Assembly: GCA_038065455.1 (NCBI GenBank) | Contig: JBBTQX010000007.1 | Span: forward strand, 1 to 40,109 | DNA: 40,109 bases | DNA from: Patescibacteria group bacterium | GTDB lineage: Bacteria > Patescibacteriota > Minisyncoccia > UBA6257 > GWB1-50-10 | Reading direction: 5' to 3' | Part shown: positions 28,791 to 33,847 of the stretch, piece after piece | Position numbering within the stretch: position 1 is the stretch's first letter | Layout: every line of letters starts with the position of its first letter | Program-made: the position numbers and the translations under genes | The notes under the pieces: model-generated | The model's input: the letters and a program-made list of their open reading frames with translations, nothing else | Database searches by the model: none | Told to the model about the DNA's origin: nothing

Positions 28791-28857
28791 TTGGAGGTAG
28801 TTTTTTATATTTTCCAAGAAAGTGCATTTCTCAGATTTTCGGAATATAATCATTTCC

Positions 28858-30786
28858 ATGGAATCACATAATTTCCTCAAAGATAAATACAACCTCCACA
28901 ACGCCCCGGAGGTGGAAAAAGCCGCCGAACGCACGGAGGAACGCACGGGCGAAAAGGTGCCGCAAAATCCCGATGCCAGGATAGAAAACTACCTTGACCG
29001 CCTGGAGCGCCTCGCCTTAGATCCCAATAAAGAGCAGGAGCGCAAGATGTTCGGGGACGAACCCCGCCCCCGCGCCCTTTCCCTCCTTCGAGAAATGGTG
29101 ATGAACAAATATGTACGTCCGAACAAGGAGAAGATGGCCGAAGGGGCGGCGAGAGTCGAGGAACGGGCCGCGCGGGAAATGGGCATCGAGGCGCATTACG
29201 GCGAGCAAGAACTCGCGCAGAGAGGCGAAATCGCCGCGGCAGACCTCGAAAAATCCCTGGACAACTGGATCTCATATCTCTCGGATGCGAATGAACCGTA
29301 CCCGACGTGGTTCCGGTATTACGCCTTCCGGAACGTCCTTGATCTCGGCGACTACGACAAGGACAAGGGAGAATTCACCAAACGCTCCCGGGGAAGCGCC
29401 AGATTGTTCCCCGACATTGACCGCGGCGCCCTGGCCTATGTCGAGCAGATGATCGAAGCCGCGAAGGACCCGGAGATGCTCGAACGTTTGAGAAAAGCCC
29501 AAGAAACCACGGGAACTCCGCCGGATCAGTTACTCACCAAGGAAAAAGCCGCGCAGTTTTCCAAATTTTCTTTCAGCAAGCAGTACGTGGAAGGTATCCG
29601 GCAAGCCGGAGAAATCACTCCCGAGATGCGGGAAGAAACCCGCGGCCAGTGGGTAAAATACCAGCAAGGAACGGACCCCACGGCCCTGTGGTCGTCGCTC
29701 CAAAACAAGGGCGCGGCCTGGTGCACGAAAGGATTCGGAACGGCCGAGACCCAGCTCAAGGGCGGCGACTTCTACGTCTATTACACTCTCGACCGGCAGG
29801 GCAAACCAACCATTCCCCGCGTCGCGATCCGAATGCAGGAAAAAAATATCGGCGAAGTGCGGGGCGTCGCGGACAACAACCAGAACCTCGAGGGCAACAT
29901 GGCCGAGATCGCCGAGGAGAAGATGAAAGACCTGCCGGGAGCGGAAAGATACAAGAAAGTGTCTGCCGACATGAAAGCCTTGACTGCAATTGAGAAGAAA
30001 ACGATGCGCGGCGAGGCCCTCATGAAAGACGATCTCGCTTTCCTCTACGAACTCGACGCGCCCATCGAAGGGTTTGGGTATCGGCGAGATCCTCGGATTG
30101 GCAAGCTTCGCGGCAAGCGCAACCCCGAAGAAGACGCGCCGGTCGTTTTCGAGTGCACTCCGGAGCAGATCGCGCGGAACGTAAAAGAAATAAGAGAAGG
30201 CACCAAGGCCTATGTCGCCCCCCTCGTTCTCGGAATCTTCGACAAGATCCAGGAATACGGCATCGAACACGTCTATACGTCCTTCCCCGAAGGCCGAATC
30301 AGGAAAGAAACGATTGAAATCGGAGGAAAAAGCGCTAAGGAGCTTGAAAAAGAGATGAAGAAAAAAGGCATTAATGTCTCTGATTATGCCAAGTACATGA
30401 TTGAAAGCAAAGATTTCACGACGCTCAAAAAATCGGAGCCGGAAGACCTGGTCCGCCTCAAGGTGGGCGATCTCGGTTTCCCTAAAGACAAGAATCCCAC
30501 GACGGACGAAGTATACAAGCGCATCGAAGAACTGGGGCTCGAACTCTGCCCGGCGGAAACCGGCCCGCAATTATGCCTTAAATACGCGGACCAACCCTTA
30601 AACGAATGGGTGAGAATCGGCATGAAGCAAATAGCCGACCGCAGCGGCGACCCGGACGTCTTCAACCTGACACGCAATGATGGCGGTTTGTGGCTGAACA
30701 GCCGCTGGACGAATCCCGAGTACAGGTGGGATACCGACAATGAGTTCGTCTTCCGTCTCCGCAAGTTGAAAAACTTAAAAACTTAG
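28858..30786 (+). CDS. DGR target protein (642 aa) with C-terminal variable region
   Basis: Codons just before the C-terminus match TR; TATAAT ends 7 nt before ATG 28858; no signal peptide or TM helix seen. Confidence 0.92.
   Translation: MESHNFLKDKYNLHNAPEVEKAAERTEERTGEKVPQNPDARIENYLDRLERLALDPNKEQERKMFGDEPRPRALSLLREMVMNKYVRPNKEKMAEGAARVEERAAREMGIEAHYGEQELAQRGEIAAADLEKSLDNWISYLSDANEPYPTWFRYYAFRNVLDLGDYDKDKGEFTKRSRGSARLFPDIDRGALAYVEQMIEAAKDPEMLERLRKAQETTGTPPDQLLTKEKAAQFSKFSFSKQYVEGIRQAGEITPEMREETRGQWVKYQQGTDPTALWSSLQNKGAAWCTKGFGTAETQLKGGDFYVYYTLDRQGKPTIPRVAIRMQEKNIGEVRGVADNNQNLEGNMAEIAEEKMKDLPGAERYKKVSADMKALTAIEKKTMRGEALMKDDLAFLYELDAPIEGFGYRRDPRIGKLRGKRNPEEDAPVVFECTPEQIARNVKEIREGTKAYVAPLVLGIFDKIQEYGIEHVYTSFPEGRIRKETIEIGGKSAKELEKEMKKKGINVSDYAKYMIESKDFTTLKKSEPEDLVRLKVGDLGFPKDKNPTTDEVYKRIEELGLELCPAETGPQLCLKYADQPLNEWVRIGMKQIADRSGDPDVFNLTRNDGGLWLNSRWTNPEYRWDTDNEFVFRLRKLKNLKT
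30635..30766 (+). repeat. DGR variable repeat (VR)
   Basis: 132-bp ungapped match to 31096-31227 with 13 mismatches. Confidence 0.95.
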
Positions 30787-30810
30787 AACTTTGTCTTTAG
30801 TTCTTAGTTT
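30779..30810 (+). promoter_or_regulatory. Stem-loop just 3' of VR (candidate retrohoming target-recognition hairpin)
   Basis: AAACTTAGAACT-TTGTCTTT-AGTTCTTAGTTT, 11/12 paired; absent after TR. Confidence 0.55.
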
Positions 30811-30839
30811 CTTTAACGCTTTTTCCGGCGCAATTTTTT

Positions 30840-30848
30840 TGGTATAAT
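30840..30848 (+). promoter_or_regulatory. Extended -10 promoter for TR RNA
   Basis: TGGTATAAT (TGnTATAAT) about 250 nt upstream of TR. Confidence 0.6.
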
Positions 30849-31095
30849 CGCAGCCGGACGGGTTATATCGGGCGGCTACGGTTTCCCGGGACCCTTCCGG
30901 CGCTTGCGCGTTGAGAGCGCGGACGGTCAAGGCTTTCCGCGGAGGATGCGCGGGCTCGCCAATAAAAAAGAAACAACTTGGTGCGCAGCGCTGGCTGATT
31001 AAAAGGAGATTCATCTCCCAGATCACGAATAAAATACAGCCCAGTCTCTTCTTTCATATAGACGGGCAGTGGCGCGGATGGCGTGGCGCACAGAA

Positions 31096-31227
31096 CCGAC
31101 CGCAGCGGCAACCCGAACGTCTTCAACCTGAAACGCAATGATGACGGTTTGCGGCTGAACAACAACTGGACGAATCCCGAGAACAGGTGGAATACCGGCA
31201 ATAAGTTCGTCTTCCGTCTCCGAAAGT
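31096..31227 (+). repeat. DGR template repeat (TR)
   Basis: 11 AAC/AAT codons in VR frame; holds A at 11 of 13 mismatched sites. Confidence 0.95.
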
Positions 31228-31236
31228 ATTTTCTTT

Positions 31237-31265
31237 CCGCGCTTATAAAGCGCGGTTTTTCTTTT
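31237..31265 (+). terminator. Hairpin plus T run just after TR, overlapping avd stop codon
   Basis: CCGCGCTT-ATA-AAGCGCGG-TTTTTCTTTT. Confidence 0.6.
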
Positions 31266-31641
31266 CGGGGTTATTCAGGCTTTTCTTCCAGCCACCGAGC
31301 ATCCGGCCGATCTCCTCCAGTTTCACCGCGATATCCTCGCACTGCTTGTTCGATATGAGTTTACCCTCCCACGCTATGGAAATCAGAAATTTGAGCGTAT
31401 CGGTTACAAGGATGCACTCCGCGATTTTCCCCGCTTTCTTCTCTTTTTCGGTAAAATAAGCGAGATAGGAGAGTTCGATGAGGTCGAGGAACTTGTTTTC
31501 AATCCTCGCACCTATGGTATAACGGGCCCCCTTAGCGATATGCGGCACAAGATTCATCCAAAACAAATACCCCTCTTTGATTCTGTTCAAGATCGAGGCG
31601 TTACCGAGAGAGAGAGCGGACGGCCGGGTCATGTTTTCCAT
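31243..31641 (-). CDS. avd: Avd-like four-helix-bundle accessory protein
   Basis: KGARYTIGARIENKFLDLIE and EEIGRMLGGWKK typical of bAvd family; start 31641 or 31632 (129-132 aa). Confidence 0.88.
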   Translation of the reverse strand: MENMTRPSALSLGNASILNRIKEGYLFWMNLVPHIAKGARYTIGARIENKFLDLIELSYLAYFTEKEKKAGKIAECILVTDTLKFLISIAWEGKLISNKQCEDIAVKLEEIGRMLGGWKKSLNNPEKKNRAL

Positions 31642-32760
31642 GATATCATTTCCGTGGAGAATCTTCTTTCCGCATGGCGGAAGTTTTTGCGCGGCAAGCG
31701 GAAGCGCAGGGATGTCGCCGTATTCTCCCTGAACCTCATAGGCAACATACTCGCGCTCCACCGGGAACTCGCGGATAAATCCTACCGCCACGGCCCTTAT
31801 ATGGCATTCAAGATTAACGACCCAAAGCCACGCGACATCCACAAGGCCGAGGTGCGCGACCGCCTGTTGCACCACGCCATCTACCGGGTTCTGTATCCGC
31901 ATTTTGACCGGAAATTTATCTTCGATTCATATTCCTGCCGCTTCGACAAGGGCGCCTACCGCGCCATGGATCGGCTGAATCAGTACGTGAGAATTGTTTC
32001 GCGCAACCACACGCGAACTGCTTGGGTCCTCAAATGCGACATCAGGAAGTTCTTCGCGAGCATCGATCATAAAATACTGAAAGATATTTTGGGATGGCGT
32101 CTCGACGACAGCGATATTCTCTGGTTGCTGACCGAAATCATAAGCAGTTTCCACACAAAGAATGAGCCGGGTACCGGTCTGCCGCTCGGGAATCTCACGA
32201 GTCAGCTCCTCGTGAATATTTATATGAACGAATTCGACCAGTTTATCAAAAGGAGATTGAAAATCCGCTACTGCGTGCGTTATGCCGACGACTTCATAAT
32301 CGTGCATAAGGACAGGCGGCATCTGGAAAATCTTCTGCCGCCGATACGTGGTTTTCTCGAAACGCGGCTGAAGCTCTCGCTCCATCCCGATAAGGTTTTT
32401 ATCAAAACTTTCTCTTCCGGCGTCGATTTTCTCGGCTGGGTCCATTTCCCGCATCAGCGGGTACTGAGAACCGCGACCAAAAGACGGATATTTCGGAGAA
32501 TCAATGGTAGCCCGGAATCAGCAACCATCACTTCTTATATGGGTTTATTGAAGCACGGCAATACTCAGCTGCTTAAAATCGATATATTCGGGATATCGTT
32601 TCGAATCCCGGAAGGGTCGCCGATTTCGGACTCGAACCGACATCCAAAAAATCCAGGAAACAACGCTCTCCGGTCTCCCACGGATGCGTGCTCAAGTTGG
32701 CTGGGGGGCAGGGATTCGGACCCCGATAAATACCTTCAAAGGGTACTGTCCTACCGTTAG
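31540..32760 (+). CDS. DGR reverse transcriptase
   Basis: KPRDI, RDRLLHHA, KCDIRKFFASIDH, GLPLGNLTSQ, RYADDF, VDFLGW; start and last ~55 aa uncertain. Confidence 0.95.
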   Translation: MRHKIHPKQIPLFDSVQDRGVTERESGRPGHVFHDIISVENLLSAWRKFLRGKRKRRDVAVFSLNLIGNILALHRELADKSYRHGPYMAFKINDPKPRDIHKAEVRDRLLHHAIYRVLYPHFDRKFIFDSYSCRFDKGAYRAMDRLNQYVRIVSRNHTRTAWVLKCDIRKFFASIDHKILKDILGWRLDDSDILWLLTEIISSFHTKNEPGTGLPLGNLTSQLLVNIYMNEFDQFIKRRLKIRYCVRYADDFIIVHKDRRHLENLLPPIRGFLETRLKLSLHPDKVFIKTFSSGVDFLGWVHFPHQRVLRTATKRRIFRRINGSPESATITSYMGLLKHGNTQLLKIDIFGISFRIPEGSPISDSNRHPKNPGNNALRSPTDACSSWLGGRDSDPDKYLQRVLSYR

Positions 32761-32771
32761 ACGACCCCCCA
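32698..32771 (-). tRNA. tRNA-Gln(TTG)
   Basis: Reverse complement TGGGGGGTCGTCTAACGGTAGGACAGTACCCTTTGAAGGTATTTATCGGGGTCCGAATCCCTGCCCCCCAGCCA; CCA encoded; T-loop TCCGAAT. Confidence 0.9.
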
Positions 32772-32860: not shown

Positions 32861-33847
32861 ATGAACGGTTCCACGACGATTAAGCGGAGTCCGATTGTCC
32901 TCATCCGCAATCTCATCGGGATAGAGCTCGCCGCCTTTCTCCTTTACTTTCTTTCGCTCGGCTACGGCAGCTACAAATACGACCTTTGGAACCAAATCTT
33001 CCTTTCGAACGTATTCTCGTACGATATCGCCAAGATGGTATTTCTTTCCGGCGCTCAGCTCTTCATCACCATCTTCGCCTTCTTGAGCTGGTATTACGAA
33101 TCGTACGATATCCGCCCCGGCGCCATCTCCCATTCCCGAGGAGTGCTTTTCAAAAATAACCGGACTCTTCCGCTCGAAAAATCGATGACTGTAACCCTAT
33201 CCTCCGGCCCGCTCGGCAAAGTTCTCCACTACGCGACTATCCGCCTCGAAAACCATAATTACAAAGAGATGGAATTAAATACGATCTCCCGCCCCGAAAG
33301 TTATCTCAAAGTAATCGAAAAATGCATCGACCCGAATATCCGGAGGTTCGTGGAAAAGCCGGATATGAGCCGGCTCATTTCGCAGGATGAGGACGAGCGG
33401 CTGGAATTCAAATCATCGCTCCGCTTCGACCGCAAGCTCAATCAGATGAACCGCGAATTGGAAAAGGCCGCGATGAAGACTGTCGCCGGCTTTCTCAACT
33501 CCAAGGGCGGCTATCTCGTGCTCGGCGTCGACGACTCGCGGAAGCCCCTAGGACTCGAGGACGACTACCAAACTATCCAGCGCAAAGACAGCGATGGCTT
33601 CGAGAATCACTTCACCCAGATATTCAATTCAATGGTCGGCCCGGAACACCGGCACCTGGTGAAACTTTGGTTTTATAACTTTGAGAATCGGGATATTTGC
33701 GCCGTCCAGGTAAGCCCGAGTCCCCAGCCGATATATTTGAAAGTGAACGACGGCGAGCGCTTCTTCGTGCGGACCGGCAATATCACAACCGACCTCAAAT
33801 TCAGCGAAGTCGACGCCTACACCCGTTCGCGCTGGCCCCGCCGATAG
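32861..33847 (+). CDS. Membrane protein: two TM helices, bPH_2-like domain, C-terminal Schlafen/AlbA_2 domain
   Basis: EDERLEFKSS, KTVAGFLNSKGGYLVLGVDD, FFVRTGN; N-half TMs then SRGVLF...GPLGKVLHYATI. Confidence 0.82.
   Translation: MNGSTTIKRSPIVLIRNLIGIELAAFLLYFLSLGYGSYKYDLWNQIFLSNVFSYDIAKMVFLSGAQLFITIFAFLSWYYESYDIRPGAISHSRGVLFKNNRTLPLEKSMTVTLSSGPLGKVLHYATIRLENHNYKEMELNTISRPESYLKVIEKCIDPNIRRFVEKPDMSRLISQDEDERLEFKSSLRFDRKLNQMNRELEKAAMKTVAGFLNSKGGYLVLGVDDSRKPLGLEDDYQTIQRKDSDGFENHFTQIFNSMVGPEHRHLVKLWFYNFENRDICAVQVSPSPQPIYLKVNDGERFFVRTGNITTDLKFSEVDAYTRSRWPRR

Follow-up and report, generated by a model that had tools for sequence, protein, structure and literature searches.

The short (GA)n repeat between the start codons of two head-to-head genes of a Patescibacteria DGR, those encoding the reverse transcriptase (RT) and the antisense avd (accessory variability determinant), is probably a translational phase-variation switch common to both genes, present here as a short ON allele. 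The repeat consists of 5.5 GA units (11 nt, GAGAGAGAGAG; 31606-31616) and is a candidate slippage site within the 5′ coding ends of RT and avd. An original prediction made from the sequence had proposed a single ON/OFF switch acting on the two genes, and this reading is supported by homologous loci, by alleles of near-identical strains, by conservation of both start codons and by joint frameshifting in silico.

The DGR and neighbouring features

The window, i.e. the whole stretch of DNA analysed (40,109 nt), corresponds to a complete contig (C7:1-40109) of a 654-kb genome assembled in 10 contigs and scored 100% complete. The DGR surrounding the tract has all parts, namely target ORF, VR, TR, antisense avd and RT, and its RT is the only DGR RT found in the whole genome. 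The RT ORF (31540-32760, + strand; 406 aa) matches Pfam RVT_1 (E 2.9e-20) and begins at ATG 31540, upstream of the tract, while avd (31243-31641, − strand) matches Pfam bAvd (E 1.8e-14) and has its conserved start at ATG 31632. The template repeat (TR; 31096-31227, + strand) gives an ungapped match, at an offset of 461, to the variable repeat (VR; 30635-30766, + strand) at the 3′ end of the target gene, which was taken from the ORF list (28822-30786, + strand; 654 aa, start uncertain) and in which no Pfam families were found. Over 132 nt, TR and VR differ at 14 positions, 12 of them TR adenines. The order TR (+), avd (−), RT (+) is that of the ‘B3’ architecture, TR-(avd)-RT, with avd reversed and TR and RT on either side, a layout found in 90% of the CPR set according to the available sections of Wu et al. 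2018 (PMC5758913). RT homologues number in the thousands in CPR; among the best 120 of 8000 scored, identities were 61-97% and all matches with a named source were from CPR bacteria. The Avd is of the bAvd family, and its structural model has four long helices, as expected of a four-helix-bundle Avd. With RT, Avd, an adenine-biased TR/VR pair and strain-level diversification of VR (below) all present, the locus is a DGR.

A tRNA-Gln gene (anticodon TTG; 32698-32771, − strand) lies beneath the 3′ end of the RT ORF. At 406 aa the RT is longer than most of the listed homologues (~303-377 aa), which match just 72-91% of its length, so that the last ~45 RT codons may be read-through over the tRNA gene. 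The depth of the contig from run X8 peaks at tRNA-Gln, as expected for a conserved tRNA. A terminator-like hairpin (31237-31255, + strand; 8 pairs, 6 of them G-C, followed by a T-run) is found directly after TR and across the avd stop codon; terminator-like sites are as frequent in the region as expected by chance, and the hairpin, if real, would place TR RNA and RT mRNA on separate transcripts. A promoter scan of 30700-31900 returned 0 sigma-70-like sites, a result that carries no information in this phylum. An ORF immediately downstream of the DGR (32861-33847, + strand) encodes a bPH_2 (bacterial PH) domain and a Schlafen AlbA_2 domain.

A (GA)n tract between two antisense start codons

RT and avd overlap head to head and codon-aligned on opposite strands, with the tract between the two starts. 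ATG 31540 of RT is the antisense of an Avd His codon, and the avd ATGs at 31632 and 31641 lie opposite the RT codons for His31 and His34, the former pair sharing the CAT at 31630-31632 (His31 on the + strand, avd start on the − strand). The RT leader, 22 codons from ATG to tract (31540-31605, + strand), is antisense to avd codons and aligned with them. Within the RT frame the tract falls in residues 22-26 (T-E-R-E-S), and on the minus strand it is read as A-L-S-L in the Avd N-terminal tail. Coordinates and translations therefore agree with the original placement of the tract in both N-termini, downstream of both start codons, and both frames are presently open as had been stated, giving an RT of 406 aa and an Avd of 129 aa (from ATG 31632) or 132 aa (from ATG 31641).

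Altering the tract in silico to 7, 9, 13, 15 or 19 nt shortened RT (from ATG 31540) to 33-66 aa and Avd to 9-20 aa, while 11 and 17 nt gave both proteins at full length. The proposal that gain or loss of one GA unit frameshifts both genes at once was thus borne out in silico, as changes that are not a multiple of 3 shorten both products. Taken alone, an 11-nt tract is within genome-wide chance: dinucleotide tracts of at least 11 nt occur twice in the genome, against a mean of 0.6-1.2 in Markov simulations (orders 1, 3 and 5, with 12 simulations of each). Four further dinucleotide tracts of about this size (10-11 nt; GA, TC, TA, TG) are located in the genome at C3:35296-35305, C5:39694-39703, C5:40216-40226 and C9:25736-25745.

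Simple repeats at the same position in homologous loci

Two independent sets of homologous loci were compared. The first contained 80 loci from species-representative genomes, reduced to 73 plus the window by removal of 7 contig-end loci lacking an Avd match; the second contained 80 metagenomic loci, of which 65 were retained after removal of 8 duplicates and 7 loci without anchors. Anchors were placed by tblastn, with RT represented by its body from residue 32 onwards and Avd by the body that begins with the first residue past the tract; in the genome set a locus was scored as repeat-bearing where a G/C run of at least 8 or a dinucleotide repeat of at least 12 nt was present in the 30-90 nt between anchors. 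Repeats of this kind were found at the spot in 70/73 loci of the genome set and nowhere else in ~441.7 kb; counted as tracts, the 5.3 kb of focal sequence held 72 and the ~441.7 kb of flanks held 0. On this sequence comparison the position of the tract is not due to chance, given repeats at the same spot in nearly all loci of the set and none elsewhere. Among the metagenomic loci the repeat was present in 62/65, the best match to the window being 74%, with no near-identical locus found in the metagenome scan. Distant B3-type relatives (RT 50-56% identical; L090-L094, L108, L110) have divergent avd and RT genes and lack the repeat.

When the sets were pooled (139 Patescibacteria loci), a simple repeat was present at the spot in 135 and absent from 4, with (GA)n in 62, poly-G in 70 and CT, TC or GT repeats in 3. 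The (GA)n tracts are 9-43 nt long (median 21.5) and the poly-G tracts 6-13 nt (median 9). The window tract had been described as short, which holds within this range, two of the 62 GA-type loci having a shorter tract and one a tract of equal length; its slippage rate may be low as a consequence. The motif itself turns over at the same site, as (CT)n of 21 nt in L062, (GT)n of 21 nt in L069, (TC)n of 34 nt in L156 and a compound GA23 + G9 in L009, and in the pair L112/L115, with RTs 88% identical, GA13 in one corresponds to G9 in the other.

On the RT strand, TA (as TAA, TAG or TAC) comes immediately after the repeat in most loci, giving a stop in one RT-strand frame, and the avd-side flank likewise has TAA in one frame. 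The repeat also interrupts some assemblies: at the poly-G site of L087 a stretch of N occurs together with a long, artificial C-run, and L083 starts at the tract, at a contig end.

Translation starts of RT and avd

The comparisons below suggest that, judged from codon usage and open frames, both true starts lie beyond the tract, each upstream on its own strand, with the repeat inside the two reading frames. Across the 139 loci, His31 of RT, whose codon lies opposite the avd ATG, is encoded by CAT in 104 cases and by CAC in 2, compared with 138:114 for the control His of the HHA motif (Fisher p = 2e-19; since the loci are related consensus assemblies, this and the following p-values overstate independence), an excess attributable to selection for the antisense ATG. 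ATG 31632 aligns with M1 of 35 in-frame homologues and is the family-conserved start. Between this ATG and the tract the avd frame is open in 48/49 poly-G loci, the other two frames being open in 26/49 and 12/49. On the opposite strand the RT leader frame is open in all 62 GA-type loci, whatever their frame state, and 60/62 have the upstream ATG; the same leader frame is open in just 35/70 poly-G loci. Codons that would create a stop on the antisense strand (TTA, CTA, TCA) account for 0/229 Leu/Ser codons among the 20 overlapped avd codons of GA-type loci, versus 224/987 in the rest of avd (p = 3e-23), and are not avoided in poly-G loci (58/294 vs 318/1289). The His31 CAT bias, the open leader frames and the avoidance of antisense stops all back the assumption of the original prediction that translation begins upstream of the tract on both strands.

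Decay of the repeat points the same way: loci without it are in frame in 4/4 cases, and those that are repeat-less or have a dinucleotide tract of at most 13 nt, a cut-off picked after the data were seen, in 10/12 (binomial p = 5e-4). These loci encode a full-length Avd with the same kind of N-terminal tail. In the AlphaFold model of Avd (36-sequence alignment; mean pLDDT 87.5), long helices span residues 16-34, 43-63, 66-92 and 98-123, with a short one at 37-40. Residues 1-15, including the tract-encoded part, are non-helical (mean pLDDT 49 for residues 1-10), and changes of tract length that keep the frame should be tolerated if this low-confidence tail is as modelled.

The poly-G form (70/139 loci) resembles the GA type in the site of the repeat relative to the avd start and helix 1, in scatter of frame and in the conserved avd ATG. 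In poly-G loci, however, the RT ATG usually follows the tract, so that only avd is shifted, whereas in the GA type both genes are shifted. Possible starts independent of the tract occur in both forms. For RT the candidate is GTG 31654, ahead of which, past the tract, no canonical in-frame start was found, although a protein started there would lack the conserved RT N-terminal motif. No Shine-Dalgarno-like motif was seen before ATG 31540 on reading the sequence. In five GA-type loci an additional RT ATG immediately follows the tract, and in many poly-G loci (e.g. L028, L034, L046, L056, L063) helix 1 (L-P-V) begins, left of the tract, with a TTG or GTG codon that could serve as a tract-independent internal start of Avd.

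Length and frame of the tract between loci and strains

The offset between Avd-body and RT-body frames is spread over 52:43:44 of the 139 loci and 40:40:42 of the 122 with long tracts. The in-frame state is not enriched among long tracts, two thirds of which are out of frame; a spread as even as 40:40:42 would equally be expected of a non-coding spacer under no constraint. Repeats of (GA)n or poly-G at the same position, in varying frame, had been named as a check on the prediction, and were found (repeats in 135/139, offsets 52:43:44). The 25 closest locus pairs (RT at least 80% identical) have the same type of repeat in 23 cases, the same length in 2 and the same frame in 4, and the tract thus changes much faster than its surroundings, keeping its type and seldom its length or frame.

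Length differences were also identified between near-identical strains, the other check named, from contigs assembled from different samples. The tract is 11 nt in the window and in run X8 (another sample) and 19 nt in runs X9 and X11 (two other studies), where 8 nt (GAGAGAGA) are inserted behind 31605. The sister strain with the 19-nt allele is ~99.5% identical to the window outside VR, and this length places both genes out of frame (OFF/OFF). The X9 contig (3949 nt) has 26 differences from the window over 2328 nt, 15 in VR, 3 in TR and 8 elsewhere, leaving only 11 in ~2.2 kb outside VR; two alleles 8 nt apart in strains this similar suggest that the tract changed recently. Fourteen of the 15 VR differences are at TR adenines, and the fifteenth (30644) is opposite TR 31105, which is A in the sister TR, so that the DGR has been diversifying among these strains. 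Between TR (31152, 31198) and VR (30691, 30737) of the window, the two mismatches outside adenines read C/T and G/A; at 31152 and 31198, T and A are found in the sister TR, matching the window VR, and therefore either the window TR changed after VR was last written or VR was written from an older TR.

Among database proteins the nearest is P0001 (97% identical), which shares the K48E change with the sister strain and whose called start is at the codon equivalent to GTG 31654, downstream of the tract. This would be expected if the upstream frame is closed, and P0001 may correspond to the 19-nt allele. More generally, gene callers mis-start or split avd and RT at the tract, as in P0001 and several other calls, and DGR surveys may in consequence score many intact elements as broken or avd-less. 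The absence of a run X8 contig over 30625-30751 (VR) was considered as a sign of VR heterogeneity in an ON population and rejected, a contig gap being no evidence. Contigs of the RNA run X13 end at 31430 and resume at 31618, placing the tract outside their cover.

MutS_V and MutL domains were not found in the 100%-complete genome by searches that score in 11/14 control genomes. The apparent lack of both would fit unstable repeats and should raise slippage even in short tracts.

Discussion

The arrangement described here suggests that a hypermutable element is an integral part of Patescibacteria DGRs of the TR-(avd)-RT layout across a large clade. Within its GA-type subclade the start codon of either gene lies antisense to a His codon of the other, and the repeat would be translated twice, as (Glu-Arg)n in the RT leader and as (Leu-Ser)n in the Avd tail, which is disordered. 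During replication, slipped-strand mispairing would shift the tract by GA units, any length other than 11 + 3k nt putting both genes out of frame together. According to the available sections of PMC6182149, the RT-Avd complex of the Bordetella phage DGR is necessary for cDNA synthesis, and loss of either RT or Avd should for this reason halt mutagenesis. Out-of-frame lengths would then stop adenine mutagenesis of VR and in-frame lengths restore it. The window would hold the ON/ON state, in frame, and its short tract probably slips less often than those of most relatives (13-43 nt). Slippage as the mechanism, its reversibility within a population and its effects on protein levels and mutagenesis are what we infer from these comparisons. 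Programmed ribosomal or transcriptional slippage at (GA)n was set aside because, to our knowledge, GA repeats are not a known slippery motif.

Several features of the window tract would also be consistent with a locus that no longer switches, the repeat being a switch in the family and here, shrunk to 5.5 units, ordinary coding sequence fixed ON, with the 19-nt sister allele active or ancestral. The tract is near the lower limit for its type (just 2/62 shorter) and no longer than chance would provide in this genome, the same 11-nt allele recurs in another sample (run X8), and lost or short dinucleotide tracts are in frame in 10/12 loci, as if decay fixed the ON state. We nevertheless consider this unlikely, as the 11- and 19-nt alleles in strains ~99.5% identical indicate recent change, the 11 nt are still a perfect, uninterrupted repeat, and a host in which MutS and MutL were not found should have elevated slippage in short tracts too. 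A different view of the tract, as part of the non-coding 5′ untranslated region of RT, avd or both, with translation starting at GTG 31654 and at a codon left of the tract and with repeat length tuning expression, in a Shine-Dalgarno-like or spacer role, or doing nothing, appears quite improbable. It would account for the even frame offsets, the RT ATG ~13 nt after the G-run in many poly-G loci or just past the tract in five GA-type loci, the TTG or GTG codons that open Avd helix 1 in many of the poly-G loci and the downstream start given to P0001 by the gene caller. It would not account for retention of the avd ATG opposite His31 (CAT 104 : CAC 2), for leader frames kept open on both strands in any state, or for the in-frame condition of all four repeat-less loci; L062, L069 and L156 have CT or GT repeats instead of a purine run, unlike a Shine-Dalgarno role, and a start at GTG 31654 loses the RT N-terminal motif that relatives keep.

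Least probable of all, to a degree that we give it hardly any weight, is a chance low-complexity stretch or flexible linker, with homologues differing in length through neutral indels that the region tolerates. Both the genome-wide expectation (0.6-1.2 tracts, 2 seen) and the low-confidence Avd tail that the tract encodes in the model are compatible with it. Neutral indels in coding sequence should, however, keep the frame, whereas two thirds of long-tract loci are out of frame, and the repeat is perfect and restricted to one site (72 tracts in 5.3 kb vs 0 in ~441.7 kb), where its motif turns over while a repeat remains. Site-specificity and frame offsets together already contradict this explanation.

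A switch shared by RT and avd, the reading that we favour, has parallels in well-known systems. Outer-membrane protein genes of H. pylori such as oipA have CT dinucleotide repeats in the 5′ coding region, poly-G tracts act as contingency loci in Campylobacter jejuni, and neither Campylobacter nor Helicobacter is known to have MutS/MutL. Like such loci, the DGR has a perfect short repeat just past the start, of strain-variable length, with two of three frames shortening the product, and like Campylobacter and Helicobacter the host has no detectable MutS/MutL. Unlike them, one repeat read on both strands would gate two head-to-head genes, the gated product is a targeted hypermutation machine rather than a surface structure or restriction-modification gene, and the host is an uncultivated ultra-small bacterium. 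In phasevarions, phase-variable DNA methyltransferases such as modA and modH are switched. The DGR tract would similarly be a slippery repeat that switches an enzyme with heritable downstream effects, one stochastic switch controlling a wider programme, although the effect would be diversification of a target gene by reverse transcription, not methylation-dependent regulation. In other respects the element is like canonical DGRs (e.g. that of Bordetella phage BPP-1), with RT, Avd and adenine-specific TR/VR differences.

The general principle of simple-sequence contingency loci is set out in the available sections of PMC3315296 and PMC6321876. The available sections of PMC6182149 and PMC5758913 contain no mention of a repeat in avd or RT or of a frame-dependent ON/OFF state, and no description of a repeat switch in DGR genes was found in the literature searched, which included parts of PMC5758913 and PMC10053308 and had article text as its scope. 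Slipped-strand phase variation is known; what these searches suggest to be new is its use on a hypermutation machine, where a single repeat would control two genes that overlap in antisense.

On balance, and with less assurance than for the switch itself, we lean towards a heritable, stochastic master switch for targeted hypermutation across this clade of Patescibacteria DGRs, which would permit hedging as well as locking of the ON state by repeat decay, with the window part-way along. A built-in random switch, if true, would show how cells limit the cost of continual self-mutagenesis and how a useful variant becomes fixed. Phase-variable genes would gain a ‘mutator on/off’ class, with a rare case of one repeat gating genes on opposite strands, and contingency-locus logic would extend to uncultivated ultra-small bacteria. 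Populations would hedge between cells that rewrite the target protein and cells that freeze a successful variant, and lineages such as that of the window, apparently part-way there, would be able to lock the DGR ON through decay of the repeat.
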